From Haplodiscus bocki (lineage: Eukaryota), in NCBI GenBank assembly GCA_965655095.1, contig OZ296658.1, forward strand, positions 75,020,001 through 75,084,000: 64,000 nt of DNA, read 5' to 3'. A model generated the notes under the pieces. It worked only from the letters and a program-made list of their open reading frames with translations. It ran no database searches and had not been told where the DNA came from. How positions within the stretch are numbered: the first letter of the stretch is position 1; each line of letters begins with the position of its first letter. Position numbers and translations under genes: made by a program. Below, piece after piece: positions 1 to 36,605 of this stretch.

Positions 1-3000
1 AAACACTTTTTGAATCTATTCGACCCAGTTTTCACATCTTTTGGAGCTTCTAGTCATTTGCATCTTAGAGGAATTAGGTCAGATTTCTTGGTTCCAACGT
101 CTTCATTGCGGAAGTTTCTAATTGCAACAACTGTGCGTGTAGACGAAGAAGAAGGATTGGTTGTTCACGCTTGCCCCATGCACTCGAAGGGGTCGTCTGT
201 GCAATACCTTCATCCTCCATCGCATCTTGTCCTGTCAAGAACTGCGTTAATTCACGATGAACGTTTGAGTATGGTGGCACCAACAATTTCGTGGATAACA
301 AACATTAAAGCAAATTTCGCCAGTCATACCTACCAGTTATTGAAAAGTGTTGGCTCTTATAGTGGAATGAGTACAGTTCAGTTGCGGCGGAGAACGCGTT
401 GGGACATCACCAGCGATATCTTGTACCACGCTGAAGGCCTCGCTTGCCGTTTTCGAGAAGAAGTTAAAACGAAGATTCGTGAATGGGTGAGAGAAGGTAA
501 AATCGTTGAAGATGTCGCTTTGGGGATTCTTGACTAACCTGCACAGATTGAGAACATTTCAGACTGTTTGTTGCCTGCCCTTTCTACAGATTTGGAGACT
601 TGTGTAGAATTAGCTAAAGTTCTAGATAAAAATGATAAAGACTATTTAAACAACGTGGAAGCTTTGAGCTGTTATTCCTTCGACCACGGAACCTGCGAGT
701 ATGGTTGTTCGCCCCCTCCTCTGAATTGTAAAGGCAGCAATGTTTTTTGGCTTGTACAAGCTGCACTGTGTCTGTCACCGTTGATGTGTCGTTCTTTGGT
801 AACATCAGGTAAGTATTCTGTGACCTTGAAGCCTTTGATATCTTTGCTGAGGAATGTCTTTATTACTTCAAAGGCAATGAAAAAAACCAGCAATACCCTA
901 CTTCTACAGCGCTCGGAAGAAGCAATAAAGACCTTGCTAGAGAAAAACCGAACTGAAGAGCAGTTAAAAGGTGTGAAGTACTGTTGTTGGCATCTCGCAG
1001 CACAGTTTTTGGCAACTGTGTCTGAGATTTTTTGCCACATCCCCTCAACGAATCGAAAAAATATAACTTGTTATACAAATGTGCAACTTCCCGTTGAAAC
1101 AACTCACGCTATATTCACCACCAATTCTCCCAATAATTTGCGGAGCAAAAGCGAACCTCCGCTAAAGTTAGTTGTCAGCGATATCGGCTATGAACTGATT
1201 GCAGTCGGAGCAAAGGATGGAGGCCCGGCCGCAGAGCCAAGGTTGATGGTTCGACATGCAGGTGACTTCCAAAAGTTCTGGCTTTTGGAGAAAAGCTGCA
1301 GATACGCTAGGAAGATGACAGAATCTAGAACTGAGTCTTTGAGTTCAGGTCTTCGTGGATATTGGACGATAGCAATTTATGAGAAATCAAGAAATCTTGA
1401 ATTAGCTGATTGTAAATGGAACTTTCTGAGCACTTTGACGGGTCAAGGCGTCTTCATCTGTGAATCTCATGACGTTCCTTTGACAAGAGACTTCAGAAAG
1501 AGCAGTTTTCGTTGTAGATGCACCCGTGCTTCTTTTTTGCGTTGCCCTTATTCCCAATGTAACAGTTGCGTATGCAAGCGTCACTTCAACGAAGGTCTAC
1601 AGAGTCCGAATAGGCGTGTTCTTGTTGATCCAATGCCGATGTCGAAAAAGAGGGGAAATACGCAATTCTCACCTGTTAATTCAGAGTCGTCTACCATGCA
1701 GGTTGTATCAGAAACATCATCTATTGTAGAGTCAATCGAATCAAGCGAGCCTGATGCAGCAGCAATTGCCTTTGGTAGGGTGTCCAACAACAATCTTTCT
1801 GTTGTTGGGGATTTCTCTTTCGAAGTTGACAACCATGAACCTCTTGAAGACAGCATGAATGTATTGGCTAGTCTCCAAACTTGCCCTGATAAAAAAGTTC
1901 TTTTCATTGATCCACACCGAAATGAAGATATTTTCAAACTGCCACTTCAAATTCTGCTCAATTCTCAATGCAACCTTTTGTACCGGCATAAAGGGAGTCC
2001 AATCAGTTTCTCGCTGAAAGAAAAACGTTTTTTAGAAAACATTGCAGCAACTTCCACGACAGCACTGCCTCTAATTCAACCAGAAGCTCTTTTGTTTCCA
2101 TCAATTTTTTGGTGTCAAGCTAACAACGGTAGTTTTCATGGAGCAATACCAGCCGCGCTTTACAACAATTCCAAGTACAACAGACAACTGGGTTTTGCTG
2201 GTTTGGAAGACATGCTTCGTACGAGAATCAAAGATGGTTCGCTGTTGACATCATGCAATCCAACTTATTTGCAGTATGTGTTTGACAGCCTTTTGAACAT
2301 GCAGCTTCACAAAACTGATGTTAGATTGGTTTTAAATCGGGGATTGCAGGAAGTGAGTTCTGGCCCTACAAATTGTTCATTTGTTTCAACGCAAACGTTC
2401 AAGTTTGACTGTGCAGAAAGTCGTAAAAATGTTTGTGAACTCGCAGCTTTAATTCGAGATAAAAATCCAACGTACTTTTTGACATATACTTGCAGCCAAT
2501 CGACCCATCCTGGCGTTAGAAAAATTTTTCAAGCACTCTATGAAATGTACCCACCAGAAACTACAAAAAAGGAACTGCTTTCTGCCGCCATTCAAGCAGA
2601 ATTGATGCCAATGCTCAGGTGTTGGTATAGAGCTTCACAATACGTAATGAAGTGGGTGAAAAAGTCTCCAGAAAGACCACTGGGACCAGTATCCCACATT
2701 TGGATGCGGTATGAATGGCAGGAGGAGACAGCTGGGTTCCCTCATTTGCATGTGATACTTTGTATTCCAGAAGACAAGTTTTCTAATGAGGTGAGATCTG
2801 GAGTTTGCTGTTCAAAAGAAACTTTTTTGGGTGCATTAGAAAGCAGTTGCCCTCAATTAACGAAAGACAAAAGGTTGCATCTGGGTGAGTTATTCCAAAA
2901 GTATCAAATTCATAACTGTACCAACGGGCGTCAGCGGTGCCATAAAAAAAACAGATCGTCTCAATCAGCCAATTTGTCGTGTGCCAAGATATCCACCATC

Positions 3001-6000
3001 GAATGCATTTTCGTTCAAAGAAGTTCCCATTAACTTCTCTTCTGAAACAATGGACTTGTTACAAGCCATGGACTTAGCAGACATTGACGTTAACACGTTG
3101 TTGCCGAAGGTCAAAAACCCTCTAATTGCCGGGAAGCATCACTATCCCACTGTGTCTAACGAGCATTTCTCGCCAACCAATGCAGCTTTGTTTGCACTGA
3201 CACAATCAAGCACTAACGTTCAAATTTGCGACGATTACATGGCACCCCGTTACGTTGCGAAGTATGCAGCGGGCATTGAATCTCGAGCAGCAGCCACAAT
3301 TGTTGCAGGTCAGACAGAGAACAGTTTAAAGGTTCTGACAGATTCGATAGAACATGAGAAGATAGCAGGTGTTCAAGCTTGTTTGAAAAACTTGCGCCAG
3401 GAAGAAAAACGACAATCAGTAAAAGGTCGTATTGTCAGTATTACTGAATGTCTTTGGTGGTGCTTACAACTTCCTTATGTTTGCACAAATGTTGACTTTG
3501 TACATGTGCCTACAGTTCCCAAAGAATATCGTTCAGGAATTGTAATTGAGAAACGTTTTCAGAAGGCTCCGAACTTCAGCGCCACTTTCACTGATGGAGT
3601 CCGTGTGCGAAAAGAATTGTTGGAACTGCCAAAACTTCGACAATTTACAAAAAGTCAAACCCTCCTCCTTGCAGATGTTGAGAACAGTTTCATTTCTCCT
3701 GACAAGGTAACTGTTTTTGGACTGAGGCCGCCAGAACTTTTGTTCGTATCCCAGTTAAAAGACTACTACAGCTGGTTTGTGCGGTGCAAACCCAGAAGAA
3801 CAAACTGCCTTAGCAATCACGAGAAGTTCTTGAAAAAAAGTTTACGTAAAAGCTGCTGGGTTGATGCACTTGGATATTTGGTTAAACTGCGCCCATCTGC
3901 TGTTAACTCTTTCGTTAGTCTCTGTCAAGAAAAGTTTTGTGAAGAACGGAATCAGTTCCTGAAACGCGAAATGAGGAAACACATTGTTCCCATTCTTGAA
4001 AACAAGAACAGTTCTCAGTTCGTTGCTCATTGGAGAAACTTGTCAGAAGAAGAGGCCGTTGTTGTTTTCAGCAACACTCTACCGAATAACCCAACAAAGT
4101 TTTTACTTCATCTGTTACTGACCGTCGGGAAACTTGACACTGAGTTGGACATATTGAACGTCCAAAGTTTCAAAGAAGTTTTCATAAAATCGGGTATTTT
4201 GCTTAACTCAACCGTCACTGATGGCGAAGTGAAAGAAATAGCTGAGAAGTATTTGCTGGAACAGCTTCGCTTCATTCCAGGGTCATCTAAATTGATCGAC
4301 ACTTACTTGGTGATGGCCCATAGTGCCATATCGGAGGCGCTGTTAATAAATAATTTATTTTTTGCTGCTGCTTTACCACCTGTTCTCGACAAAAGCGTCC
4401 TGGAGGAATGCGAAGAAACAGTCACAATTCAACTGGCTATGGAAAAGTGTAAAATGATAGCTTTCCTTCAGACATGTCAGACTGAATTACCTGCAGAGCA
4501 AACGATGATCGACGCCACTTTCAATACTCCAGTGCCTTGGAAGCCACTTTTACAGAAGAGCTCGGATCAAAGTAAAAACTCATATTTAGAGCAGCGTCAA
4601 GTTTTGGACGAACTCATTAATTCAATAGACATGTATAACGGAGGACATTGCACTTTCATAAGACATCAGATTGTTTTCGGTCCACCGGGAAGCGGCAAAA
4701 CTTTTGTGATGCTGAAGTCCCTTGCTTACGCCTTATGCCAAGGATTGCATTGTGTGGTATCATCCATAGCAGCCGAAAGATCTGCTGCTTTAGCTCGAAA
4801 ACATCTAAATGCTTTGATACCATTTCCAGTTGAAAAATGTTGCTCTGCAGAATCACTTTCGAAGAAAACTCTGCCCAATTTACAACGATCTCCTATCAAA
4901 AGCCGAGTTTTACAGTACTTAGACGTAATTTTCGTTGAAGAACTTTCAATGATATCTAGCGAGCTTTGGGCAGCGACAGATCATGTTTTGCAAGTTGTCA
5001 CGGCAAATTATGTTCCTTTCGGCGGAAAACTCGTTGTCGCAACTGGTGACTTCTTTCAACTTCCCCCGCCCTCTGGATCTTACTTGATGAGTTCCTCTTT
5101 TCCTTTAACAACCTTTGCTTTCCACAATTTGAAAAATTTCGTCCGAATGCGGAACAAGAACGGCCAGGAACTGTTATCATTGTTATCAGCAACGCCTAAA
5201 ACAGATGCCAATGCAGAAAGAATTTGGAAAATTATGGAAAAAGATTGCAATTTTGTACAGTCGTGGAACGACGTGCCGAACGACAGAATTCGAATTTTTG
5301 CTACTAGACAAGCGGAACGAAAAGCAACCGAGAATAAAATCAATGAAGTTAAATGCAGCAGAACACAATTTTTTGAAAGTGCGTCCATCGACGAAATGTG
5401 CGTTTCGAGCACCGACAACTGGAGTGAGGCGACTGCAACAGCGTCGAAGTTCCTGAACAAAAAGTGCCTTGAGCCCCAATCACTTTTTCTATACCCCGGT
5501 GCTATTGTGCGATTAACTGTCAACAAACCATCCATATCAGCATATCAAGGTCAACTTTGCGTCCTCCTGACTTTGGATACCATTGAAAATGGTACCCTAA
5601 CAGTTGCTCTTGCTCCAGCTGGTTGCAGAAAGATCCCGCCACTCTCTGTGATCAGAAACAGTTGGAGGTGTGTTGTTATTGGCAAGGAAACCGGTGTAGC
5701 CTTCCGATTAAACCATAAAACAGTGTGCAGGAGGATACAGTATCGGTTAAAGCTTTTTGTTGCGTCCACCATTCACAAGACCATGGGCGAAACTCTGCCG
5801 ATGGTGGCGACGCAAATAGTGGGGTCACGAGATTTTGCTTTGTGGCTTCCTGAGCAGTTGTATGTGGTTATGAGCAGGGTAAGGAGTTTGAACCATGTGA
5901 CTTTTGTGGGCACGAAGGAGGAGAATAGAAGAGCAGTTTTAGACTTAGTCCGCAAAAAATCACAATGGGCTGAGCTGACTAATGAAATTCTGACAAAAAG

Positions 6001-6463
6001 TTCTGCGCGCGATCCCACAGTTTATCATGCCAAAGCATCGCCTTTTCCGCCATCAACTCGTGACCTACCTACCCAAAACTTGGGTTTCTGTTACTTGCTG
6101 CAGAGTGTCCCACAAAGTCAGCTGTTGTACATTGGCTCCACTATGTCCTTGGTGCGTCGTCTGAGGGAACACAATTCTGGGTTAGGTTCTAAGTTCACAA
6201 AAATTACAAATCGGTTGCCCTGGAAAGTTTGTGCCTATGTAACTGGGTTCAATTTAACCAATGCGTCTCATAGAGTCCGCGTATTTGAGAAAGAATGGCT
6301 GGATGCAGCATCGAACTGCGTTAATCTCAAAAAGAAAAATGTATCACTCTTCACAGCCATCAATTTAGGTGAAGACATCGCAAAAACTTGGCCGCACAAA
6401 GAAGACGGTTTAAAACTTATTGTATGTAGTGGTGAACCCACTGCCTGTTTAAAGCCATGGTGA
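1..6463 (+). pseudogene. ORF1 of L1: Rep/PIF1 helicase/GIY-YIG polyprotein, disrupted, start lies upstream of the window
   Basis: Pieces 10-537, 568-3033 and 2885-6463. TAA at 535-537 (TAT in other copies) and a +1 A in the run at ~2944-2951. Motifs YFLTYTC, PHLHVIL, YVAKY, GPPGSGKT and CYLL...YIG are present. Confidence 0.9.
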
Positions 6464-7315
6464 TCGCAATATCCATTCTGACAAGACTGTTGAAACCATT
6501 TTCGGTTGTGCACAATGTTTCTGCGTACGCGTTGGATCCCAACTGCTTCGACTGCATAGTGAAGCGTTGACAGAGTTCCCTTCCTATATTCTGTATAAAT
6601 TTGCATCGACTGCACAGTGTTGCGAATTTCAGCATAGGACTACTGACGAAAAATTTTCGGCTCGACTGACTGCTGCGACTGTAGATTGTCGCATTTTGAA
6701 ATGTCAGCTCGTATTGCTCCTTCAGTGACTTGATAATATGCACCAGATGAACTGTTTAGAATTTTTGTTCGTGTAGTTGGGTCAGCATTTTTGATTAGTT
6801 GAATTTTCTTGCTTAGTGTAGCTTTGAGTACGTATTAGACTTCAGTTGTGGAACATGTGCAATGAAAATATATTTTATTATCCTTTACTTTCTACAAGTT
6901 TTGTGGACAGAAAAAAAACCGATGTAATAATGGTGTATTCGAATGCATTGCTCACCTTTTTTTTCTATGGCCTTAAGTGTTACTGATCGACAAAGCGTGA
7001 TGCGTTGAACCGTAAGATAACTGTAATTGTAACATAACATTTCTGTGAATTAAACTCAGTGATGAAGAAGATTTGAGAACTCTGAATAATTGATGAACTT
7101 GTCATGCTTTTTTTGAAAAACAGGTTGCTTTACTTGAAGCAATAGCGCTATTTCACTGTATTAAATGCTTGAAACCGAAAAAACTTGCCTGTTGACTTTA
7201 ATGAACCTTAAAGGAAAATGCGTTCACAGAATCTTTAAAAAAAGTAGAAAGCATGGTTTTGAATATTCCAATTGTTCAGTTCTCAGGCAGCTTCAACCAC
7301 GTTTGATTTCAGACT

Positions 7316-8314
7316 ATGACAACTCAAGTCAACACCTCCCAAGTAACATCTCCAATTTTTTTGCGTCGAAGCGAAAATACGTTCGTCAGAGGTATCGTTC
7401 TAGTTACTAAGAAATACGACAAACCTTTGCAGTTGTTTAGACCGCAAAATATCAAAAACAAGAGAGGTGCCCTCGATACCACCTATGACCGATTAGTCAT
7501 ACTAGGCGAAATCATTTCAAAAGAATGCTTTACTGTGATTGCGGAGTCTGCACAGAAAATCCCTTTTTCGTTCGGCGACACTCTGTTAACAGTAGCGTCA
7601 ATTGTGGACGTAAAAGAACCTGTGTTCTCCAACTTTGTCTCGGCAATGACCGCAGTAATCCAATTTTCCATGTCTTTCTTCCTTTGGAAGTCGTGGTTAA
7701 CAATATTCCATTGTTGCCAATTCCCATAGATCTCCACCCATCAACGACAGCAATGTTTCACTTTTGCTTGCCAAACAGACCCATCACCTTCTTACAAGCA
7801 GGTGCTGTGGCTCCAACTTGCTCAGGCTTCATGTGTGACAGAGGAGAAAAACGAATTGACTCTGTATGCCCCTGTATACAGAAATCTCCTGTTTCAGCTT
7901 GGGTAATGTGCGCCCGAATTGTCAGTCGTGACATCGAAAATGAAGACGAAGACCCCCTCACGGGAGAAAAAATGCAAAGTGTTAACCTGACAAAAATATT
8001 TTGCAGCGAAGCAATTTTTAGAACTTCATATGCATCAATCGTTTCGCAACAACTGCGGAATGCTGTTAACCAGGTGTCCCAATTTGTAAATGAGAATGGA
8101 GGGTGGCAGGTATATGGATTTTACAAAAGTGGATCCACAATCGAAAATCGTACAACGTGTCCGCATTTGCAAAATTACGCCTGCAGTTGAAATGCCTTTT
8201 AACTTGAAGTACAACATTGTGCCATGCAACGCCAATATTGGCAATGAGCCCCCAGCTTTGCAACATGCGAATGCTAACATCGGTGCTCCTAACAATCCGA
8301 ACAACCTACGATAG
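7316..8314 (+). pseudogene. ORF2 of L1, frameshifted
   Basis: Pieces 7316-7729, 7525-8190 and 8090-8314 together match the intact 336-aa ORF2 of L2 and L4. Confidence 0.88.
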
Positions 8315-8394
8315 CTGATCTAGAGTGACTCTTCAGAAGACCGTTCTTTCTCAACCGCGTGAACTGCTTGCAGGTTTTCAAAACCAATCTCTCC

Positions 8395-8426
8395 TTTCGC
8401 AATCGACCGCAAGGTGGTTGCTGAAA
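8395..8426 (+). other. Conserved GNRA-capped stem-loop about 80 nt downstream of the ORF2 stop
   Basis: TTTCGCAATCGACC-GCAA-GGTGGTTGCTGAAA. The core is identical in L2 (~24189), L3 (~38917) and L4 (~55763). Function unknown. Confidence 0.4.
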
Positions 8427-9372
8427 AAAACATGCACAAAGTAACAAGTTTCGCGAAAAAAAGTCAACTGATAATGTTGTCCTCGTTCTTTCATACCAAA
8501 GTTTGTTCTCCTGCTTTTTTTCAATCTTGAAACCTATGCTTCAATTTTCTTGTTTATGATAAAGTTTAACTTTCCAGTACTTATCAGTACCGAAATGTTA
8601 ATTGTTGGTTTTTGTAGAACTGTAAACACTAATGTCAAATTAGTTGTTGTTGAACAATGGAAATTAGTTTGCAGCTGCCGACGACTTGTCTCTGTAAACT
8701 TTTGTTTTTCAGTAGTTTAGAACATTGTGCTAATTCGTGCTGCTTTTCAATGTGGTTTGTTGATTCGTGTACAAGTTTTGAACTTTTCATATTATGCAAT
8801 GAACTTCTTTCTTGTTTTGTTAAACCTAACTATCCGTTCATCACCGAACGTTTTGAACTTTGAAACGATGCCTTGTTCTTCTATCGGGCTAAGTGCAGAC
8901 TCTCAGTTTGTTGCTTGACGTCTGATACAGTGAACGTTTTGTAAAACAAGGAAAAGGAATAAAACTAGAAAGTGTTGTAATTTTCTCCAACGGAAGAATG
9001 GGAACAAACTTTCATACGAAATTTTAGAGAAGTTTTTTCTGAAGTCTATACATGTTCATTTGCTTCAATTAGGTTGTTTTCACAAAGTAACAGCTGGGAA
9101 CCTACTGCCTGCAAATTGACAACACTGATGCGAAACTTTTTGAGAAAGTTAAAACCCTTTCGCGGGTCAAATTTTGAAAGTATCCGTTGGGAAAAAATTT
9201 CCGTTTTCCTTCGCAGAAACTCATCAACCTTGAAGTTGTTTGTTAAAGGAACAGCTGCTTTCAGAAAATAGCCAGCCAAAATTTCTTGCCGACGTTCGCA
9301 GTGCGCTTGTTTAAGTGTCATAATCAAATTATACGGCAAATTTTGATTTTTTGTGATTTTTTTGTTTTTTTT

Positions 9373-9967
9373 TTCGAAAAATTCGTCATAACCGTCATTT
9401 GTTTCGGCACTTTGGCCAAAATTTTTTTATCGTCAAAAAATTATCTTTCAAGTTATGGAGTCAATTTCACAATGGAGCCGCTCCAGAACGCAAGCTATGT
9501 GCATCAATGTGGGAGATATGACGAAATGATCGTTTTTCGGCATTTTTTTTAAAATTCGTTCCGTCATATCTCCACACTTATGACGATTTGACAGAAAATT
9601 TTTCGCATGCGTAAAGGCCACAGTTAATGTGCTTCACACAAGAAGTTTCGACCAAATGCGTATGGATACTGCTGGAGGTGGCAGAAAAAAACCGCAAAAT
9701 TTTGCCAAAAATAGGAATCATTCCGTCATAAGTCCTTAAACAATTGACCTAGAATGATCTAACCGGCACCATTGTTCTTAGAATTGTAAAGTATGCCTGC
9801 ATACAAAGTTTGAACCAAATCGTATGGGTGGGAGCTGAGATCGCTATTTCTACACCCCCGTTTCCACAGATGTAAAACACTAACTAATACGGCTCGGCAA
9901 AGGGGCCCCTCCCCCGCCTCGCAAAGGCCTGATATGGGGCAAAAACCCCTGACCACCCAGTGGAGGC
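9373..9967 (+). repeat. ~600 bp terminal block shared by long and short units (7 copies)
   Basis: Homologous blocks begin TCGAAAANTTCGTCATAACCGTCATT at ~9373, 10421, 25152, 39896, 40939, 41987 and 56727. All end in TGACCACCCAGTGGAGGC. Confidence 0.92.
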
Positions 9968-9999
9968 ACCGGTGAAAATCACCAGGTGGCGGTCACTGG
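9901..9999 (+). other. Junction J1 (L1/S1): GC-rich hairpin cluster with invariant 18-mer; candidate terminus or origin
   Basis: AGGGGCCCCT palindrome, GGGG-CAAAAA-CCCC hairpin, TGACCACCCAGTGGAGGC, then GGTGA-AAA-TCACC hairpin. Equivalent 18-mers end at 11015, 25749, 40490, 41534, 42581 and 57320. Confidence 0.7.
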
Positions 10000-11015
10000 T
10001 TATGCCATTCTGACAATCGAACAAATTTGCTAGTCTTTTCTTTCAACACAGTAATGATTTGTGCAAATGCAGTTTTTATATATTGAAATTTGCATGTGAA
10101 ATCTTCACCGACATGGATGAGACATCGAAGATGAAGCTTGCAAACACTTTGGCCCCGTTGTTCCTCCGTGTCGCTTCGCTAATCTACGAAACAACGGGGC
10201 GAGGCAATAAACTTTTTGGCAATTGTTGTGAACTTTCACACAGAAATGCCTCAAAATAAATGATTTTTTTTTTCGAAGAATAACTTCTACTCCAAATTTT
10301 ACCCGGAGTTGAAGGATGTTTTGCTCTAAAGCAGTTTCCGAAAAGAAATTCGATCACAAAAACATCAGAAACGAATTCTACAATCAAAACCGAGTTTTTG
10401 GAAAAAAATTATTTTTTTTTCTCGAAAAGTTCGTCATAACCGTCATTTCTTTCGGCAAAATGGCCAAAAATTTTCTATCGTCGAAAAATTATCTTTCAAG
10501 TTATGGAGTCAATTTCATACTGCAGCCACTCCAGAGCGCAAGCGATGTACTTCAATGTGGGAGCTATGACAAAATGATCGATTTTCGGCACTTTTTCCCA
10601 ATTTTGATGCGTCATATCTCCACACTTATGACGAGTTGGTGGGAAATTTTTTGAATGTGTGTAGCTCTTAGTTATTCTGCTTCACACGAAAAGTTTTGGC
10701 CAAATGCTTGTGGTTAACTGCAGGGCTGTTGGAGAAAAACTGCAAAATGAGGGCAAAAAACAGAATCATCCCGTCATAATTCCCCAACTAATTTGGCTAG
10801 AATGATCTAACTTGCACCATTGTTCATGGAATTGTAAACTATGCCTGCATGCAAAGTTTCATCGAAATCGTATGGGTGGGAGCTGAGATCGCAAATTTCC
10901 TATACCGTATATGCGTATTTGTTATTTCTTATATTTTAACGCGAGGCAAAGGGGCCCCTCCCCCGCCTCGCTAGGACGTATGACGGGCGCAATCCCTTGA
11001 CCACCCAGTGGAGGC
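9968..11015 (+). mobile_element. Short non-coding module S1 (putative non-autonomous derivative, 1048 bp)
   Basis: Bounded by two junction 18-mers. Consists of a ~450 bp unique part plus the terminal block. Nearly identical to S3. Confidence 0.7.
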
Positions 11016-14000
11016 GACGGTGAAAATTACCAGAAGGCGGGATTTTCTGCATCCAATTTTTTTGCTGCATCATTTCTGGTGATTGGTTCTTTTTTCTAAA
11101 GGGTTGTTTTTATAAAAGGAAACTGTTGTTTTTTTATTTACGATACCTTACTCCAGGCTGAAGAATAGCTCACACGACGCGGTACAACTGATACATGGAT
11201 ACATGGACAGTTTGTCTCACACCGTAAGATTGCGTTTTTTCCGCAAAACGTATAGTTTTGTAGACTTTTTAAAAGTTGACAACAGCAGCAATGAAGGATG
11301 GCAAACATACTTTCTGGTCGATTTTTACACAAACTCAGGTCAAAACGGCGCTAATGTAACAAATTTTTAAAGTTGTCAGCTGCAGAAATAATATTTAACT
11401 TCACCCATTTACCCGTGACCGACTTACATAACAATGAACGTTTTCATTGGATAACCTTCCCATTTGTTTAATCCGGAATTTTTCAAAGAAATCATTGGCT
11501 TGCAGAATGGGTGATGTACCTGAAGCATTTCTTGGTGGTCCTCCATACCGTTTTTTGTTCTTCAGAGAAACTATATTGGTGTTGCGGGCTCGTCCACGTC
11601 ATTTGGCCTTTTTCATACATGAAAAAGTACAGTTAGGTGTTCTGTACCAGAGAAATTCATGAACAAAAAGTTCCGCGCCAAAACATTTCATCCATTATGT
11701 AACTATTTTATTCATGCACCGTTCAAAACGCATTAAATACGTTTAATGCGTCCAGAAGCAGAACAAAAGGATTAATGGTAACTAGCCATTTTCATCATTG
11801 ACTTGAGACACTTGTCTCCATTGTCTCCATCAAGTCATCGTCAGCCATAGATTATGACAAGTTAAAGGCCACTTTGATGACGTATCAGTGCTGATAGTAG
11901 ACTAAATGTGTGTCTTTCTTTTGTCAAGTGGTGAAATTCGTGCTTTGATTTTCCTGATTTTCAGCTTTTACCAACAATAAACGTGGTTAGTGAAAGGAAT
12001 CGAAACAGTTTCTGAAGGTATCATGCTCAGTTAAAACGATGCTTCTTTACTATTGATGACTTTCAAGAGTGGTTTCGATTTTAAGAATTTTTTTCTTCTA
12101 CAGACCGAACCAGAACTGTCGCGTTTCACAAACGTTTTTGCGTGAGGTTCTTGGAAGAGGCTATTCGGTCGGTTCCGACGCATACATAACGGAGTTTTAC
12201 ACTTATTCCAAAATAACTTTTGAATTTTGTGTAAAAAATTACTTGTTGTCAGATAAAATGATCAGCGAACGAGCATGTTATGGATACGTTTTATTCTTGT
12301 GAAGTTTTGTCGAGGTTTCTTTTTGGATATTGCGTTTTTATATCAAATCGTAAATTGTTTCACGTGAACTCGGCATCGCCAATTTCCAATCCCGCATTTG
12401 AACCCTTTCATGTAGATACTTTTTCGTATGTGATAGAAACGTATGAACTGTTCATCCTGTAATTCCTGACTCACTGAAGTCTCAACTGATTTTGGTGAAC
12501 AATTTTTGGCTTGTGTCGATAAATTCGGCGCATTAACTTTGGTAAATTACTTTGCTAACGTTTTCCTGGGAGAAGAGTGCTGTGTAACGCTTGTCAGAAT
12601 CGCTGGCTGACTACTAATACTTTTCAATAATTTCTAAAACTAAAAGGGGGACTACGCTGTTATCATCGTACATGAAATGTTGAAATAGTTAATGGCGCAT
12701 TGGAGACGTGGGAAATTGAAAAGTAAACAAAATAATCGTTACTTTTAATGTATCCCCTTGGTTGCCAACGTTGACTGGCATTAGAGGAACAATTTCTACA
12801 GGTTCAACAAAGTTGAGCATATTATTGGTTTTGCTTAGGAGGAGAACTTGCTTTCATTTACTTTTTAACCGCCTGCGGCCTAAACACCGGTCACGTAACA
12901 TTTAGTGTTCGCCATTCGTTAGCTGGTGAGTTTGGTGTCAGTCATGCGGTAAACTGAAAACAAGGGATAATTTCTTAGACAAACAGACCGTTTCCGCTGT
13001 CAGTGCGGGAATGAAAGATTACGTAACGTTCTTGTTTCACGCTTTTCAAATAAGGGTTTTATCTCTTTTCAACTGAGCAGTAAAACGCTGTAACATGATA
13101 TCCTACTTTGTTCAACAGTTCAATGTCAGTTTAATTTAAGCTAATTTTTCATGTTCATTGCTTTAGATATATTTGCTGTTCTTATCGCCAACTACAGGAC
13201 GGTTAAGTTTCCAGCAGTAAAAAGCAAGCTTCAGATTGATTGCCATTGTAGTCAGCTTGAAGTAAAGGCAGATAATTGTGTAGTCTGTGTCATTATAGGA
13301 AAATTCTTCATGATTTTCGGGTGCTCATTAAAAATAACGTTCGAATATATGAAAGGCAGATTAAACTTGAGTATTTTTTTGTTTTTGGTTGTGCTGTGCT
13401 GGCAGGGAAGAAAATGATGCAATTTTGCGTGTATCTGCAAAAGTTTATTTTCGTTTTTGTTTGTGTTTGCCAATTGTCACCATATTGAGTAAATTAATGA
13501 CAAAAAGTGTGTTTCTCGTGCAGTTGTGTGAATGGTCTCTGTTTCATTCCACGTCAAAAGGGGCAAGTAATTGGCTGGTACCAATTATCGCAAGTGAAAG
13601 TTTTTGGGGAATTTTGACATACGCCTCCTTCCTGTAGGAGTTTGCTGGTTTTTGTTGCAGACCAAAACTTGCGACCTGAAGTCAAAGATTTTATATCGGC
13701 TTCCCTTTCTTGAAGGGTTAATTTGGAAAGTAGTTTATTGCTTCTTGTAAATGTTTAGAGACTTTCATTGTGTTTTCTATGTGCTTTGCCTGTAGGACTT
13801 TTGCTATTTGATGTCGGCACGAGTGAAGCACTATATGTAAAAGGCATCTTCCCAAAGCCTTGGTTTCGCTCAGAGGCCTTCGCAAAACCAAGGCGCTTCT
13901 GTTTTTCATTATTCAATTCGCAATGGAAACTGTAACCGTTATGGAAACAGTCCTTTCCTAAAAACTTCAAAAAGGTTTGAAATGCGGAAAGGAATAAATA

Positions 14001-14179
14001 TCACAGTCTGTATGTCGAATTTATAGCAGCCTCTGGAGCTCTATTTGTCGCAAATGGGTCCTTGGCGGCTTCAATTATCTGGGGTCTGTAATTTTTTTTG
14101 TGTTTCAAATAGGTTTGGTAAATTTTGACATGCTGCTTCCCTTTTTTGTGCAATCAAACCTGCAACCAAAAAGCAAAAC

Positions 14180-17100
14180 ATGAATCGTCGCCGTTGTACT
14201 TCTTGTGGACAATTTGCTGTTGCAAGCCATGTTTGCCTGAAGGACATTGATCGAGAACTGCAATCTGATGAGCCGCTGGGCATCTTATACAAAATTCCCG
14301 ACATTTCAATCTCCGTTTCACCAGTTGCACGAAGTGAAACTCTGAACTGTCTCTCAACTTTAGGTCTAACTGATTTTTTAGTCTCTCTAGACGTTTCGAT
14401 CGCAAATGACAGTATCATTTATAATTTGCGTCCGGCGCGTGTAACTGCGATTCTTGGCGATGGTAATTGCCTTTTCTCATCCTTAGCAGTTGCTCTCGGT
14501 TTGTCACAGGATTGTAGTTCAATTCTACGGAATATAATTGTTAGCAACATGACAACATGATGTTCATCAACTTCCCTCCAAACAGCTTACAAACCACAAT
14601 TTACTCCGCTGATTTTCCAAACCAATACCGTGTTTTGCTTTGTACTTCGATTCAAGAGTACCTCAGTTTGTCGAAAATGGAAGAAAATGGAGTCTTCGGA
14701 ACATGCGTTGAAATATACGCGTTTTGTCAGATTTTCCAAATGGACGTATATTTATATCATGTTCCTCTGAAATCCTGGTTGGTTTATGAATGCTCTCTGA
14801 GCACGAATCGTCGTGGAATTTTCATTCAGCAAACCTGGAATGCAAATCACTTTGAAGTAATCAGTGAGTTGGTTTCAGTCGCAAATGAAGAAAACGCTGC
14901 AGGTTCACAAAGAATTTCCTGTCTTAGTTCCAACGCAATGCATTTCTCTTCGTCAGTTTTGGGAGAGGATATTGAATCTTTCAGGTACCCAGAAAACACA
15001 ACAGGGGTCCCACCAGCGAAAAAAGCAAAACACACTGCGGATCCATCCACCTCGAAGACATGCCTTGAAACTCACGTCACACACATTCCAAGTCAGAACT
15101 CCTGTAACGCAAAGTCAGATCAAAATTTTCCGATGCTACCGTTGTCAGAAAACGCTACCAAATCTGTTCTGAGCAGAGAAATACCCAAAATCGAGGATCT
15201 GTACACTAACACTGCTACGGTTTCACACAGTGATGCAACAATTGAACAAACGACAGATGGTAATTCTAAGTCTGCTGACGGAGAGTTTTGCGGCAAATGC
15301 TTGCGACAATCCACGCTGCAATATCCGTTAAAGCTTACTAAGACAGAAAAGTCAGATTTTATAAACAGAATGTTTGGTAACCGAATCAAGGACGCTTTTC
15401 CCATATTATGCAATCAATGTCTACTTTACTGTACTTCCGAACGCATCGAGTGGAGTCACGCATAGCCATCTGTTTTTTTCACGCTTTTGAGTGATGAAAA
15501 AATGCCCAAGGAGCAGCAGTTGAATGTTTTAACGTTGTTACCTTGGGAACTGAGACAGCAATGGATGGGATGCTTGGAAAAATTTACTCCATGAGTCCAA
15601 CAGTTTCTCAATGGAAAAGAAATCAATGGGAAATGTGTCGTTGACGGAACCGCTCGTTTGCATTATTTCCAGAAACTGATCAAAACTCTTCAACAAGAAC
15701 AAATAGCAGTAGCTTTGGATAAAGAACCTTACCCGAACGTTCGGTGCCCATTTGGTTGCTGGTGTTTCATTGAAGAATCCGGTTTAATCAATGCTAAACA
15801 CTTTTTGAATCTATTCGACCCAGCTTTTACGTCTTTTGGAGCTTCTAGTCATTTGCATCTTAGAGGAATTAGGTCAGATTTCTTGGTTCCGACGTCATCG
15901 TTGCGGAAGTTTTTAATTGCAACAAGTGTGCGTGTAGACAAAGTAGAAGGATTGGTTGTTCACGCTTGCCTTATGCACTCAAAGGGGTCGTCTGTGCAAT
16001 ACCTTCATCCTCCATCACATCCTGTCCTGTCAAGAACTGCGTTAATTCACGATGAGCGTTTGAGTATGGTGGCACCAACAATTTCGTGGATAACAAATAT
16101 TAAAGCAAATTTCGCCAGTCATACCTACCAGTTATTGAAAAGTGTTGGTTCTTATAGTGGAATGAGTACAGTTCAGTTGCGGCGGCGAACGCGTTGGGAC
16201 ATCACCAGCGATATCTTGTACCACGCTGAAGGCCTCGCGTGCCGTTTTCGGGAAGATGTTAAAACGAAGATTTGTGAATGGGTGAAAGAAGGTAAAATCG
16301 TTGAAGATGTAGCTTTGGGGATTCTTGACTATCCTGCACAGATTGAAAACATATCAGAGTGTTTGTTGCCTGCCCTTTCTACAGATTTGGAGACTTGTGT
16401 AGAAATAGCTAAAGTTCTAGATAAAAATGATAAAGACTATTTAAACAACGTGGAAGCTTTGAGTTGTTATTCCTTCGCCCACGGAACCGGCGAGTATGGT
16501 TGTTCGCCCCCTCCTCTGAATTGTAAAGGCAGCAATGTTTTTTGGCTTGTACAAGCTGCACTGTGTCTGTCACCGTTGATGTGTCGTTCTTTAGTAACAT
16601 CAGGTAAGTATTCTGTGACCTTGAGGCCTTTGATATCTTCGCTGAGGAATGTTTTTATTACCTCAAAGGCAATGAAGAAAGCCAGCAATACGCTACTTCT
16701 ACGGCGCTCGGAAGAAGCAATAAACACCTTGCTAGAGAAAAACCGAACTGAAGAGCAGTTAAAAGGTGTGAAGTACTGTTGTTGCCATCTCGCCGCACAG
16801 TTTTTGGCAACCGTGTCAGAGAATTTTTGCCTCATCCCCTTAACGAATCGAAAAAATATAACTTGTTATACAAATCTGCAACTTCCCGTTGAAACAACTC
16901 ACGCTATATTCACCACCAACTCCCCCAATAATTTGCGGAGCAAAAGCGAACCTCCGCTAAAGTTGGTTATCAGCGATATCGGCTATGAACTGATTGCAGT
17001 CGGAGCAAAGGATGGAGGCCCGGCCGCCGAGCCAAGGTTGATGGTTCGACATGGAGGTGACTTCCAGAAGTTCTGGCTTTTGGAGAAAAACTGCAGATAC

Positions 17101-20100
17101 GCTAAGAAGATGACAGAGTCTAGAACTGAGGCTTTGAGTTCAGGTCTTCGTGGATATTGGACAATAGCAATTTATGAGAAATCAAGAAATCTTGAATTAG
17201 CTGATTTGAAATGGAAATTGCTGAGCACTTTGACTGGTCAGGGCGTCTTCATCTGTGAGTCTCATGACGTTCCTTTGACAAGAGACTTCAGAAAGAGCAG
17301 TTTTCGTTGTAGATGCACCCGTGCTTCTTTTTTGCGTTGCCCTTATTCCCAATGTAACAGTTGCGTATGCAAGCGTCACTTCAACGAAGGTCTACAGAAT
17401 CCGAATAGACGTGTTCTTGTTGATCCAATGCCGATGTCGGAAAAGAGGGCAAATACGCATTTCTCTCCTGTTAATTCAGAGTCGTCTAGCTTGCGAGTTG
17501 TATCCGAAACATCATCTATTGTAGAGTCTATCGAATCAAGCGAGCCTGATGCAGCAGCAATTGCCTTTGGTATGGTGTCCAACAACAATTTGTCTGTTGT
17601 TGGGGATTTTTCTTTGGAAGTTGACAACCATGAACCTCTTGAAGAAAGCATAAATGTATTGGCTAGTCTCCAAACTTGCCCTGATAAAAAAGCTCTTTTC
17701 ATCGATCCACATCGAAATGAAGACCTTTTCAAACTGCCACTTCACATTCTGCTCAATTCTCAATGCAACCTTTTGTACCGGCATAAAGGGAGTCCAATCA
17801 GTTTGTCGCTGAAAGAAAAACGTTTTTTAGAAAACATTGCAGCAACTTCCACGACAGCGCTGCCTCTAATTCAACCAGAAGCTCTTTTGTTTCCATCAAT
17901 TTTCTGGTGTCAAGCTAACAACGGTAGTTTTCATGGAGCAATACCAGCCGCGCTTTACAACAACTCCAAGTACAACAGACAACTGGGTTTTGCTGGTTTG
18001 GAAGACATGCTTCGTACGAGAATCAAAGATGGTTCGCTGTTGACATCATGCAATCCAACTTATTTGCAGTATGTGTTTGACAGCCTTTTGAACATGCAGC
18101 TTCACAAAACTGATGTTAGATTGGTTTTAAATCGGGGATGGCAGGAAGTGAGTTCCGGCCCTACAAATTGTTCATTTGTTTCAACGCAAACATTCAAGTT
18201 TGACTGTGCGGAAAGTCGTAAAAATGTCTGTGAACTCGCAGCTTTAATTCGAGATAAAAATCCAACGTACTTTTTGACATATACTTGCAGCCAGTCGACC
18301 CATCCTGGCGTTAGAAAAATTTTTCAGGCGCTCTATGAAATGTACCCACCAGAAACTACAAAAAAAGAACTGCTCTCTGCGGCCATTCAAGCAGAATTGA
18401 TGCCGATGCTCAGGTGTTGGTATAGAGCTTCACAATACGTAATGGAGTGGGTGAAAAAATCTCCAGAAAGACCACTGGGACCGGTATCCCACATTTGGAT
18501 GCGGTATGAATGGCAGGAGGAGACAGCTGGGTTCCCTCATTTGCATGTGATACTTTGTACTCCAGAAGACAAGTTTTCTAATGAGGTGAGATCTCGAGTT
18601 TGCTGTTGAAAAGAAACATTTTTGGGTGCATTAGAAAGCAGTTGCCCTCAATTAACGAAAGACGAAAGGTTGCATCTCGGTGAGTTATTTCAAAAGTATC
18701 AAATTCATAACTGTACCAAAGGGCGTCAGCGATGCCATAAAAAAACAGATCGTCTCAATCAGCCAATTTGTCGTGTGCCAAGATATCCACCATCGAATGC
18801 ATTTTCGTTCAAAAAAGTTCCCATTAACTTCTCTTCTGAAACAATGGACTTGTTACAAGCCATGGACTTAGCAGACATTGACGTTAACACGTTGTTGCCG
18901 AAGATCAAAGACCCTCTAATTGCCGGGAAGCATCACTATCCGACTGTGTCTAACGAGCATTTCTCGCCAACCAATGCAGCTTTGTTTGCACTGACTCAAT
19001 CAAGCACTAACGTTCAAATTTGCGACGATTACACGGCACCCCGTTACGTTGCGAAGTATGCAGCGGGCATTGAATCTCGAGCAGCAGCCACAATTGTTGC
19101 AGGTCAGACAGAGAACAGTGTAAAGGTTCTGACAGAACCGATAGAACATGAGAAGATAGCAGGTGTTCGAGCTTGTTTGAAAAATTTGCGTCAGGAAGAG
19201 AAACGACAATCAGTAAAAGGTCGCATTGTCAGTATTACTGAATGTCTTTGGTGGTGCTTACAACTTCCTTACGTCTGCACAAATGTTGACTTTGTACATG
19301 TGCCTACAGTTCCCAAAGAATATCGTTCAGGAATTGTAATTGAGAAACGTTTTCACAAGTCTCCGAATTTCAGCGCCACTTTCACTGATGGAATCCGTGT
19401 GCGAAAAGAATTATTGGAACTTCGACAATTTACAAAAAGTCAAACCCTCCTCCTTGCAGATGTTGAAAACAGTTTCATTTCTCCTGACAAGGTAACTGTT
19501 TTTGGACTGAGGCCGCCGGAACTTTTGTTCGTATCGCAGTTAAAAGACTATTACAGCTGGTTTGTGCGCTGGAAACCCAGAAGAACAAACTGCCTTAGCA
19601 ATCACGAGAAGTTCTTGAAAAAAGGTTTACGTAAAAGCTGCTGGGTTGATGCACTTGGATATTTGGTTAAACTGCGCCCATCTGCTGTTAACTCTTTCGT
19701 AAGTCTCTGTCAAGAAAAGTTTGGTGAAGAACGGAATCAGATCTTGAAACGCGAAATGAGGAAACACATTGTTCCCATTCTTGAAAACAAGAACAGTTCT
19801 CAGTTCGTTGCTCATTGGAAAAACTTGTCAGAAGAAGAGGCCGTTGTTGTTTTCAGCAACAGTCTACCGAATAACCCAACAAAGTTTTTACTTCATCTGT
19901 TACTGACCGTCGGGAAACTTGACACTGAGTTGGACATCTTGAACGTCCAAACTTTCAAAGAAGCTTTCATAAAAGCGGGTATTTTGCTAAACTCAACCGT
20001 CACTGATGGCGAAGTGAAAGAAATAGCTAAGAAGTATTTGCTGGAACAGCTTCGCTTCACTCCAGGGTCATCTAAATTGATTGACACTTACTTGGTAATG

Positions 20101-22248
20101 GCCCATAGTGTCATATCGGAGGCACTGTTGATAAACAATCTCTTTTTTGCTGCTGCTTTACCACCTGTTCTCGACAAAAGCGTCCTGGAGGAATGCGAAG
20201 AAACAGTCACAATTCAACTGGCTATGGAAAAGTGTAAAATGATAGCTTTCCTTCAGACATGTCAGACTGAATTACCTGCAGAGCAAACGATGATCGACGC
20301 CACTTTCAATACTCCAGTGCCTTGGAAGCCACTTTTACAGAAGAGCCCGGATCAAAGTAAAAACTCATATTTAGAGCAACGTCAAGTTTTGGACGAACTC
20401 ATTAATTCAATAGACATGTATAAACGAGGACATTGCACTTTCATAAGACATCAGATTGTTTTCGGTCCACCAGGAAGCGGCAAAACTTTTGTGATGCTGA
20501 AATCTCTTGCTTACGCCTTATGTCAAGGATAGCATTGTGTGGTGACATCCATAGCAGCTGAAAGATCTGCTGCTTTAGCTGGAAAACATCTGAATGCTTT
20601 GATACCATTTCCAGTTGAAAAATGTTGCTCTGCAGAATCACTTTCGAAGAAGGCTCTGTCCAATTTACAACGATCTCCTATCAAAAGCCGAGTTTTACAG
20701 CACTTAGACGTAATTTTCGTTGAAGAACTTTCGATGATATCTAGCGAGCTTTGGGCAGCGACAGATCATGTTTTGCAAGTTGTCACAGCAAATTATGTTC
20801 CTTTCGGCGGAAAACTCGTTGTCGCAACTGGTGACTTCTTTCAACTTCCTCCGCCCTCTGGATCTTACTTGATGAGTTCCTCTTTTCCTTCAACAACCTT
20901 TGCTTTCCACAATTTGAAAAATTTTGTCCGAATGCGGAACAAGAACGGCCAGGAACTGTTATCATTGTTATCAGCAACGCCTAAAACAGATGCCAATGCA
21001 GAAAAAATTTGGAAAATTATGGAGAAAGATTGCACTTTTGTACAATCGTGGAACGACGTGCCGAACGATAGAATTCGAATTTTTGCTACTAGACAAGCGG
21101 AACGGAAAGCAACCGAGAATAAAATCACTGAAGTTAAATGCAGCAGAGCACAATACTTTGAAAGTGCGTCCATCGACGAAATGTGCGTTTCGAGCACCGA
21201 CAACTGGAGTGAGGCGTCTGCAACAGCGTCGAAGTTCCTGAACAAAAAGTGCCTTGAGCCCCAATCACTTTTTCTATACCCCGGTGCTATTATGCGATTA
21301 ACTGTCAACAAACCATCCTTATCAGCATATCAAGGTCAATTTTGCGTCCTCCTGACTTTGGATACCATTGAAAATGGTACCCTAACAGTTGCTCTTGCTC
21401 CAGCTGGTTGCAGAAATATCCCGCCACTCTCTGTGATCAGAAACAGTTGGAGGTGTGTTGTTATTGGCAAGGAAACTGGTGTAGCCTTCCGATTAAACCA
21501 TAAAACAGTGTGCAGGAGGATACAGTATCCGTTAAAGCTTTTTGTTGCGTCCACCATTCACAAGACCATGGGCGAAACTCTGCCGATGGTGGCGACGCAA
21601 ATAGTGGGGTCACGAGATTTTGCTTTGTGGCTTCCTGAGCAGTTGTATGTGGTTATGAGCAGGGTACGGAGTTTGAACCATGTCACTTTTGTGGGCACGA
21701 AGGAGGAGAATAGAAGAGCAGTTTTAGACTTAGTCCGCAAAAAATCACAGTGGGCTGAGCTGACTAATGAAATTCTGACAAAAAGTTCTGTGCGCGATCC
21801 CACAGTTTATCATGCCAAAGCATCGCCTTTTCCGCCATCAACTCGTGACCTACCTACCCAAAACTTGGGTTTCTGTTACTTGCTGCAGAGTGTCCCACAA
21901 AGTCAGCTGTTGTACATTGGCTCCACTATGTCCTTGGTGCGTCGTCTGAGGGAACACAATTCTGGGTTAGGTTCTAAGTTCACAAAAATTACAAATCGGT
22001 TGCCCTGGAAAGTTTGTGCCTATGTAACTGGGTTCAATTTAACCAATGCGTCTCATAGAGTCCGCGTATTTGAGAAAGAATGGCTGGATGCAGCATCGAA
22101 CTACGTTAATCTCAAAAAGAAAAATGTATCACTCTTCACAGCCATCAATTTAGGTGAAGACATCGCAAAAACTTGGCCGCACAAAGAAGACGGTTTGAAA
22201 CTTATTGTATGTAGTGGTGAACCCACTGCCTGTTTAAAGCCATGGTGA
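14180..22248 (+). pseudogene. ORF1 of L2: OTU-Rep-PIF1-GIY-YIG polyprotein, disrupted
   Basis: 8-nt duplication (CAACATGA) at ~14545-14560 causes a frameshift. Stops at 15463-65, 15592-94, 18607-09 and 20530-32. A 9-nt in-frame deletion lies near 19420. Confidence 0.92.
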
Positions 22249-23097
22249 TCGCAATATCCATTCTGACAAAACTGTTGAAACCATTTTCTGTTATGCACAA
22301 TGTTTCTGCGTACGCGTTGGATCCCAACTGCTTCGACTGCATAGTGAAGCGTTGACAGAGTTCTCTTCCAATCTTTTGTATATATTTGCATCGACTGCAC
22401 AGTGTTGCGAATTTCAGCATAGGACTACTGACGAAAAATTTTCGGCTCGACTGACTGCTACGGCTGTAGATTGTCGCATTTTGAAATGTCAGCTGGTATT
22501 GCCCCTTCTGTGCCCTCGATAATATGCAGAAGATGAACAGTTTAGAATTTTTGTTCCTGTAGTTAGTTCAGCATTTTTGATTAGTTGAATTTTCTTGCTT
22601 TGTGTAGCTTTGAGTACGTATTAAACTTCAGTTGTGGAACATCTGCAATGAAAATATATTTTATTAACCTTAACTTTCTACAAGTTCTGTGGACGGAAAA
22701 AACCGATTTAATAACGGTGTATTCGAATGCATTGCTCACCTTTTTTTCTATGGCCTTAAATGTTACTGATCGACAAAGCGTGATGCGTTGAACCGTAAGA
22801 TGACTGTAATTGTAACATGACATTTTTATAATTGAACTTAATGATGAAGAAGTCTTGAGAACTCTGAATAATTGATGAATTGTCATGCTTTTTTTTGAAA
22901 AACAGGTTGCTTTACTTGAAGCAGTAGCGCTATTTCATTGTATTAATTGCTTGAAACCGAAAATACTTGCCTGTTGACTGTAAGGAACCTTAACGGAAAT
23001 TGCGTTCACAGAATCTTTAAAAAAAGTAAAAAGCATGGTTTTGAATACTCCAATTGTTCAGTTCTCAGGCAGCTTCAACCACTTTTGATTTCAGACT

Positions 23098-24108
23098 ATG
23101 ACAACTCAAGTCAACACCTCCCAAGTAACAGCTACATTTTTTTTGCGTCGAAGCGAAAATACGTTCGTCAGAGGTATCGTTCTAGTTATTAAGAAAAATG
23201 ACAAACCTTTGCAGTTGTTTAGACCGCAGAATATCAAAAACAAGAGAGGTGCCCTCGATACCAGCTATGATCGATTAGTCATACTAGGCGAGATCAGTTC
23301 GAAAGAATGCTTTGCTGTGATTGCGGAGTCTACACAGAAAAGCTATTTTTTGTTCGGGGACACTCTGTTAACAGTAGGGTCAATTGTGGACGTCAAAGAA
23401 CCTGTGTTCTCCAACTCTTTTCGCGGCAATGATCGCAGTAATCCCATTTTCCATGTCTTTCTTCCTTTGGAAGTCGTGATTAACAATATTCCATTGTTGC
23501 CAATTCCCATAGATCTCCATTCATCAACGACAGCAATGTTTCACTTTTGCTTGCCAAACAGACCCCTCACCTTCTTACAAGCAAGTGCTGTGGCTCCAAC
23601 TTGCTCAGGCTTCATGTGTGACAGACGAGAAAATCGAATTGACTCTGTATGCCCCTGTATACAGAAATCTCCTGTTTCCGCTTGGGTAATGTGCGCCCGA
23701 ATTATCAGTCGTGACATCGAAAATGAAGACGAAGACTCCCTCACGGGAGAAATATTACACAGTCTTAACCTGACAAAAATGTTTTGCAGCGAAGCTATTA
23801 TTAGAACTTCATATGCATCAATCAATTCACAACAACTGCGGAATGCTGTTAACCAGGTGTCCCAATTTGTAAATGAGAATGGAGGGTGGCAGGTACGTGG
23901 ATTTTACAAAACTGGATCCACAGACGAAAATCTTGCACAAAACGTACAACGTGCCCGCATTTGCGAAATTACGCCTGCCGTTGAAGTGCCTTTTAACTTG
24001 AAGTACAACATTGTGCCATGCAACGCCAATATTGGCAATGAACCCTCAGCTTTGCAGCATGCGAATGCTAACGTCGGTGCTCCTAACAATCCGAACGACG
24101 TACGATAG
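23098..24108 (+). CDS. ORF2, 336 aa accessory protein with a Cys cluster (CSGFMCD...CPC); possible OB-fold/zinc ssDNA-binding protein
   Basis: Intact ATG-to-TAG ORF with the same length in L4 and homologous broken copies in L1 and L3. The fold assignment is inference only. Confidence 0.8.
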   Translation: MTTQVNTSQVTATFFLRRSENTFVRGIVLVIKKNDKPLQLFRPQNIKNKRGALDTSYDRLVILGEISSKECFAVIAESTQKSYFLFGDTLLTVGSIVDVKEPVFSNSFRGNDRSNPIFHVFLPLEVVINNIPLLPIPIDLHSSTTAMFHFCLPNRPLTFLQASAVAPTCSGFMCDRRENRIDSVCPCIQKSPVSAWVMCARIISRDIENEDEDSLTGEILHSLNLTKMFCSEAIIRTSYASINSQQLRNAVNQVSQFVNENGGWQVRGFYKTGSTDENLAQNVQRARICEITPAVEVPFNLKYNIVPCNANIGNEPSALQHANANVGAPNNPNDVR

Positions 24109-36440: not shown

Positions 36441-36605
36441 GAGGAGAATAGAAGAGCAGTTTTAGACTTAGTCCGCAAAAAATCACAATGGGCTGAGCTG
36501 ACTAATGAAATTCTGACAAAAAGTTCTGCGCGCCATCCCACAGTTTATCATGCCAAAGCATCGCCTTTTCCACCATCAACTCGTGACCTACCTACCCAAA
36601 ACTTG

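Follow-up and report, generated by a model that had tools for sequence, protein, structure and literature searches.

The Haplodiscus bocki array and its junctions

The stretch analysed here, referred to as the window, comprises 64,000 nt of the genome of Haplodiscus bocki (GCA_965655095.1, OZ296658.1:75,020,001-75,084,000, forward strand), and all of it is a head-to-tail array of Helitron-like transposable elements, with units of 14.73-14.74 kb and 1.04-1.05 kb. We studied this array computationally, by comparison of sequences, structure models and literature. A preliminary description had reported an identical 18-mer at seven junctions between units, with upstream flanks of two types (A and B) and downstream flanks of a short-unit (X) or long-unit (Y) type in the order A-X, B-Y, A-Y, A-X, A-X, B-Y, A-Y. 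Both the seven exact copies, all on the plus strand (Table 1), and the flank order were as claimed, and no further match with up to three mismatches was present in the window (0.01 expected by chance). Successive 18-mers lie 1048, 14734, 14741, 1044, 1047 and 14739 bp apart.

Within the 18-mer, one Helitron-like element finishes with its right end, TGACCACC, and its neighbour begins with its left end, CAGTGGAGGC; the 18-mer is their joint. The conserved unit is not the 18-mer itself, which is the right end plus the left end of one subgroup; the core common to the other families of the same arrays is only CCACC^NAG, where the caret marks the joint. An Rfam scan of positions 9000-26500 gave no match, and we rejected the idea that the 18-mer is the target of a known small RNA. 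Several left ends, in the window (9957-9990 and 11005-11040) and in other families, repeat CYAG or TAG ~25 nt inside the terminus; this repeat might represent either an additional binding site or an older terminator.

The long unit encodes an OTU domain, a Helitron-like Rep, a PIF1 helicase and a GIY-YIG domain in a single frame, together with a second open reading frame (ORF). The fusion of an HUH Rep carrying two catalytic tyrosines (Y2) to a PIF1 helicase is the RepHel hallmark of Helitrons. RepHel copies lying wholly within the window are broken by stops or frameshifts, while the copy that begins near its right edge is intact (P0001). Short units are non-coding and share ~600 bp with the long unit at the right end (83% identity) but only ~40 bp at the left end. 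The Rep residues H1451, H1453, Y1620 and Y1624 are invariant among 20 aligned relatives. The model of the Rep region (predicted local distance difference test, pLDDT, 79) had Helraiser as its best structural match (PDB 7lcc, Foldseek E 4.7e-7), with Z 16.8 and a root-mean-square deviation of 3.8 over 324 residues, compared with Z 6.6 for the next match, even though Rep identity to Helraiser is 12-13% and by sequence Helraiser matches the helicase only. The best solved match of the GIY-YIG domain was SLX1; this domain is fused in most full-length relatives, with no GIY-YIG match in P0023 and P0031.

The family is a broad one, with 1,001 proteins at E <= 0.001 and 204 at 1e-30 (50%-identity clusters). 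In the 35 related viral loci the match is confined to the helicase, and the related metagenome loci of at least 4 kb (25 of 41) showed neither terminal repeats nor a match to the H. bocki end pattern. The second ORF, found at 23089-24108 and 54663-55682, has 11 relatives at 47-89% identity and accompanies the RepHel gene in both orientations; it had no Pfam match, and its structure prediction (pLDDT 38) was too low to use.

Table 1. Positions of junctions, hairpins, units and coding regions in the 64,000-nt window
Feature	Positions	Strand	Remarks
Junction, long to short unit	9950-9967	+	right end 9950-9957, left end 9958-9967; crossover 9957/9958 or 9956/9957
Junction, short to long unit	10998-11015	+	crossover 11005/11006 or one base leftward
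Junction, long to long unit	25732-25749	+	
Junction, long to short unit	40473-40490	+	
Junction, short to short unit	41517-41534	+	
Junction, short to long unit	42564-42581	+	
Junction, long to long unit	57303-57320	+	
GGG-loop-CCC hairpin core near right end, likely origin signal	9902-9914	-	conserved
Same right-end hairpin	10951-10963, 25684-25696, 40425-40437, 42517-42529, 57255-57267	-	
Small left-end hairpin, likely terminator side	9971-9983	-	counterpart 11019-11031
Long unit (14.74 kb)	1-9957	+	starts 4.8 kb left of window; RepHel ORF broken
Passenger unit, non-coding, 1048 bp	9958-11005	+	
Long unit, 14,734 bp	11006-25739	+	stops interrupt RepHel ORF
Long unit, 14,741 bp	25740-40480	+	ORF interrupted
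Passenger unit	40481-41524	+	apparently chimeric: short-family body, right end of long family
Passenger unit	41525-42571	+	99.0% identity to 9958-11005
Long unit, 14,739 bp	42572-57310	+	ORF interrupted
Long unit, RepHel ORF intact	57311-64000	+	continues to window-equivalent 72045
Intact OTU-Rep(HUH, Y2)-PIF1-GIY-YIG ORF, 2689 aa (P0001)	60486-64000	+	start in window; end at window-equivalent 68555
Broken RepHel ORF copy	14129-22248	+	unit next to the junction at 10998-11015
Second ORF, ~336 aa	23089-24108	+	conserved across families, no Pfam match
Right-end core, ~600 bp, common to passenger and long units	10409-11005	+	83% to 25142-25739

Element ends, host sites and an empty site

The 1.5-Gb genome contains 236 exact copies of the 18-mer, clustered and spread over many contigs. 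At the edges of the clusters the 18-mer splits, leaving either G[AG]CCACC upstream of CAG or TGACCACC followed by TAG, AAG or GAG. The preliminary description had named solo copies and array edges as the place to check its proposal, and there homology does stop inside the 18-mer, between TGACCAC(C) and CAG. Most split edges are further families rather than host DNA, and host edges were reached by walking outward. Among the 42 right ends with a base other than C at +1, all 30 that were inspected continue with AG at +2/+3, with 7 running into host DNA and 23 into other families. The host left flanks (n = 15, tallied by eye, with seven flanks from base-fixing patterns and two doubtful flanks excluded) carry C at -1 in every case and A at -3 in 12. 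The host sites resemble the element joint, namely C^NAG with a weaker A at -3. Since mismatches to the element occur at -2 in several host left flanks and at +1 in host right flanks, the crossover must be placed either just before or just after the common C at -1. We also rejected a 7-bp target duplication (GACCACC at either side): the left host flanks do not match the right end at -5 and beyond, nor, in several cases, at -2.

When the flanks of a 39-kb array in a host satellite were joined, they matched an uninterrupted satellite copy at 300 of 300 bases, and therefore neither duplication nor loss occurred at that insertion. This paralogous empty site agrees with the earlier claim that unit ends are joined without intervening host DNA or target duplication, although it is a single site, with a paralog at hand for one of the five arrays tested. 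The satellite around this array has a higher-order structure and holds many unused target-like sites. For a dimer at C1:146.37 Mb, read-derived contigs span both host-element edges in two samples of one study; neither sample yielded an empty allele, and one of them may be the assembly's source.

Only four junctions with a base other than C at -1 were found (a fifth match was left out of the tally), and all four have G and none T, which is odd for ordinary mutation (L096, L097/L249, L098 and L251). One of the four belongs to a solo copy whose left host flank has G and whose right side has C; its presumed empty joint carried unknown letters, and there was no useful paralog. A metagenome contig holds a distant relative (L204, from another organism, with 27% protein identity) that lies between two copies of one left end, both starting with AAG (9090-9263 and 17810-17980). 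The preceding base is C where the flank appears to be host DNA and G at the tandem joint; in this single case a small hairpin lies ~25 nt before the tandem joint. The solo copy with the host G and L204 hint at a cut directly before NAG (-1|+1), while by analogy the likeness to CTRR and to IS91 would point to a cut one base further left (-2|-1). One solo passenger (L148, near 1500) adjoins a repeat that resembles a tRNA by eye.

Growth of the arrays and the moved strand

The window is part of a 198-kb array of 34 units (G000:C11:74,927,736-75,125,755) that contains Helitron-like elements of 14.7-17 kb and 1-kb passengers. Further families occur genome-wide; their short units measure ~1.05, 1.25, 1.43, 2.09 and 3.07 kb, and their long units 12-18 kb. 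All families are joined at CCACC^NAG with one polarity, and autonomous and passenger units are mixed. The common right-end pattern is followed by YAG in 1,462 copies and by RAG in 69. Of 30 RAG loci inspected, 13 continue into another family, 16 are host-like and one is a truncated unit, and a few host flanks begin with YAG. Thus ~97% of ~1,500 right ends abut another element, compared with ~225,000 CACC^RAG sites in the host (estimated from 12 in 80 kb of host DNA).

We consider it probable that the arrays grow by the HUH transposase nicking and joining single strands at C^NAG, with the existing joint likely being the best substrate, so that each new copy was likely inserted at the joint left by an earlier copy. 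The element is a Helitron-like transposon with sequence-specific and probably self-directed insertion, and the junction would correspond to the Rep nick site. In the mechanism that we propose, the transposase would nick the minus strand at CTNG/GTGG beside the right-end hairpin, the hairpin and the 600-bp core of the right end acting as the origin. The helicase would peel off one strand until the next CTNG, at the left end, served as terminator, and the copy would be joined to a 3'-OH created at a similar site. Insertion at a host CTYG would give a solo copy with a usable site at both edges. An element-element joint would rebuild a complete origin with its binding sites and might be nicked far more often than a host site, each nick offering a 3'-OH to which a copy from any family could be joined. 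The arrays would also be lengthened by block duplication and by some concatemers.

The strand assignment rests on the following comparisons. Every right end contains a GGG-loop-CCC hairpin 37-52 nt from the terminus; across 26 aligned right ends its closing pair is kept in 24, with five pair types, and the three inner pairs are invariant. The left ends are of several unrelated types. Two units with an intact right end have their left boundary precisely at a C^NAG in the interior of their parent (offsets 232 and 1356); for the offset-232 unit the lost left part was found nowhere to its left in the array, and no right-truncated units were seen. The starting end of Helraiser is indispensable, but its terminator can be skipped (PMC4778049). 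Given that truncated units keep the right end and that Helraiser ends behave in this way, the right end is likely the origin and the minus strand of the window likely the moved strand. The preliminary description had raised, as an alternative, a minus-strand reading with a hairpin followed 10 nt later by CTGG. This hairpin is present at the left end, and the polarity that this reading entails is now the better supported one, given the left-truncated units and the minus-strand ORFs of other families. In three other autonomous families (12, 15 and 18 kb), the ORF is on the minus strand and the joint is unchanged. Because the right-end core of the window family aligns with that of the 15-kb family in the same orientation while the ORF is opposite, the gene cassette was inverted between fixed ends.

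The opposite assignment, in which the plus strand moves, the left end is the origin and the right-end hairpin is the terminator, appears unlikely but keeps some weight. The ORF of the window family is on the plus strand, and in Helraiser the ORF strand is the moved strand (PMC5876387); moreover, the best-conserved hairpin is at the right end, as in Helitron right terminal sequences. However, the truncated units lose the left end and keep the right, the ORF of the three other families is on the minus strand, and passengers retain far more of the right end (600 bp) than of the left (~40 bp), all of which favour minus-strand transfer from the right end.

Several observations weigh against insertion at existing joints from a right-end origin. 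The left-end hairpin is weak, and it is missing in several families; the polarity rests on two truncated units, with cryptic-site insertion excluded for one of them; and neither of two samples yielded an empty allele whose junction letters could be read. The window array contains block duplications (a 3.7-kb tail plus short unit, 99.97-100% identical) and three further near-identical short-unit pairs, and a 3.3-kb block that includes host flank is duplicated elsewhere. These duplications inflate the junction counts, and the several-thousand-fold preference for element joints over host sites is an upper estimate. Other arrays contain same-family runs with identical ends that are compatible with concatemers, and at least one chimeric unit (40481-41524) shows recombination in the common core. 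At one joint (L305, 2090-2110), a 14-nt purine-rich piece starting with AAG separates a right end from the left end that follows, perhaps as flank that was picked up by read-through of the terminator.

Near-identical blocks, single-family runs and chimeric units could also be accounted for if concatemers or multi-unit blocks produced by read-through were later mixed by unequal crossover or gene conversion, with the junction still being a Rep site but without any preference for resident junctions, and concatemers have been described for plant Helitrons (PMC11934779, PMC5148889). We judge this to be unlikely. Unrelated families that share only an ~8-nt core at the joint alternate exactly at that core, which leaves no homology for crossover, and the Rep proteins of alternating families lie on separate deep branches. 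Furthermore, when 32 units of the window array were compared, none of the 31 neighbour pairs was identical (best local match 65-97%), and the closest relatives (99.4-100%) were not adjacent, as with three long units at 99.4-99.7%. The preliminary description had offered both repeated insertion at the element's own end and rolling-circle concatemers; since a single rolling circle cannot mix families and crossover would lack homology at the joint, we favour the former, serial insertion at existing joints, over concatemers from a single circle.

Self-targeting might instead be real but steered by the C-terminal GIY-YIG nuclease, or by the chromatin of the arrays, and not by origin-bound Rep. The fusion of this SLX1-like domain in most full-length relatives would fit, and in KolobokP an accessory nuclease has been proposed to drive multimers (PMC9587614). 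Nevertheless, the empty site lacks duplication or deletion, as single-strand transfer predicts, and P0023, without a GIY-YIG match, clusters with the 12-kb family, whose junction is the same (P0031 likewise has no match), such that we hold steering by the nuclease or by chromatin to be quite improbable. The reading of the 18-mer as a conserved motif inside the unit, with unequal crossover as the source of the pattern, is refuted beyond reasonable doubt, even though crossover-type chimeras occur in the common core, by solo copies and array edges that end within the 18-mer and by the exact empty site.

Comparison with known rolling-circle elements

The animal and plant Helitrons described so far insert at a dinucleotide and are present as scattered copies. 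In H. bocki, a single common joint gathers ~1,500 elements, from families whose transposases have diverged deeply, into a few dozen arrays. If self-targeting is true, large tandem arrays could arise by a path that does not involve concatemer replication, transposons would serve as each other's safe harbour, and a eukaryote would possess a natural HUH insertion system that is both site-specific and scarless. The intact 2689-aa ORF and the precisely mapped ends make target choice directly testable.

We compared the element with the two classes of Helitron-like elements, HLE1 and HLE2, as defined in PMC4067079, PMC11417382 and PMC13085455. Like Helraiser and HLE1, it combines a Y2 HUH Rep of the same fold with PIF1 and makes no target duplication. 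Its minus-strand end can be read as a hairpin, 10 nt and CTRR, a reading in which CTRR depends on a cut at -2|-1; the end of one family is CTTG, and the hairpin is weak or absent in several families. In contrast with HLE1, there is no 5'-TC, the ends being NAG...CCACC on the plus strand and (G)GTGG...CTN(G) on the minus strand, and the target is not A|T but C^NAG, which resembles the element's own joint. Rep motif 2 is EWQEETAGFPHLH rather than the RGLPH of HLE1 (PMC4067079), a motif that the HLE1 copy of the same genome does carry. The C-terminal GIY-YIG domain and the presence of ~97% of copies in mixed-family arrays are further differences from Helraiser and HLE1.

With HLE2 (Helitron2/Helentron, with DINE/HINE passengers) the element shares an OTU domain, short passengers that conserve the core, and an ORF in either orientation (PMC4067079, PMC5148889). 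Inverted repeats of the asymmetric HLE2 type (12-16 nt) were not found in eight families, where the best reached 5-8 nt and 14-199 of 200 shuffles were as good. The T|T (or T|C) target is absent, and RGSPH and DUF6570 are missing from P0001 but present in the HLE2 copies of the same genome. Unlike Helentrons, the element has no C-terminal apurinic/apyrimidinic (AP) endonuclease and carries GIY-YIG instead. The same genome holds ordinary HLE1 and HLE2 elements (one with OTU and AP endonuclease, one with UCH; L292, L294, L296 and L297), and no junction of the CCACC^NAG kind was found around these copies in the stretches fetched. In a quick tree of 43 Rep regions, 40 rows stood apart from the HLE1 and two HLE2 rows of the same genome (Shimodaira-Hasegawa-like approximate likelihood ratio test 91, long branches). 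This tree, which omitted four relatives without the motif and two broken pieces and had own-genome rows as its only HLE references, is suggestive of a Rep lineage separate from HLE1 and HLE2. The element works like a Helitron, yet its ends, target and motif are those of neither HLE1 nor HLE2.

The bacterial element IS91 offers another comparison. It targets CTTG (also GTTC and CTCG), has the terminator CTCG, makes no duplication, and moves its bottom strand from an origin downstream of the gene (10.1101/2025.01.24.634351). Read on the minus strand, the host sites of H. bocki are CTTG/CTCG and the far end of the element is CTGG/CTAG, or CTTG in one family, if the origin side is as we infer; the window family then has the same layout of gene and origin as IS91. 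In contrast with the H. bocki element, IS91 has a stand-alone Y2 transposase without a helicase, and three related H. bocki families have the opposite gene orientation. No sequence link to the IS91 transposase was found, and the likeness may be convergent. Helitrons have been contrasted with IS91 on site specificity (PMC5876387).

The third-clade Helitrons of Paramecium, like probably the H. bocki element, fall outside HLE1 and HLE2; they too have a proposed sequence-specific insertion and carry the ORF in either orientation (PMC13085455). Their targets, however, are telomeric repeats, while the H. bocki host flanks are not telomeric; compared by description, the excerpted text of PMC13085455 makes no mention of GIY. 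Plant and bat Helitron arrays also consist of head-to-tail copies, for which concatemer formation is the published explanation, and in KolobokP multimers one element is repeated with shared LTDRs, whereas the H. bocki joint alternates unrelated families. A GIY-YIG domain in a Helitron has been reported once among the papers covered, for a Sphagnum HLE2 with a TT target (PMC11417382), and self-insertions and tandem copies are mentioned for Fusarium (PMC5148889).

Our literature search, to which Repbase and supplements (e.g. the unplaced clusters of HELIANO) were outside scope so that an earlier record is possible, returned no description of this lineage or of mixed-family arrays at a shared joint. 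Whether the H. bocki elements constitute a further major lineage of eukaryotic rolling-circle transposons is, in our estimate, evenly balanced. Such a lineage, equipped with a GIY-YIG domain, would have retained tetranucleotide specificity in the style of IS91 and would use the rebuilt origin as a shared landing pad. Its autonomous and passenger families would insert into one another's joints, giving ordered arrays like those of integrons, sparing host genes and leaving a scarless site that renews itself.

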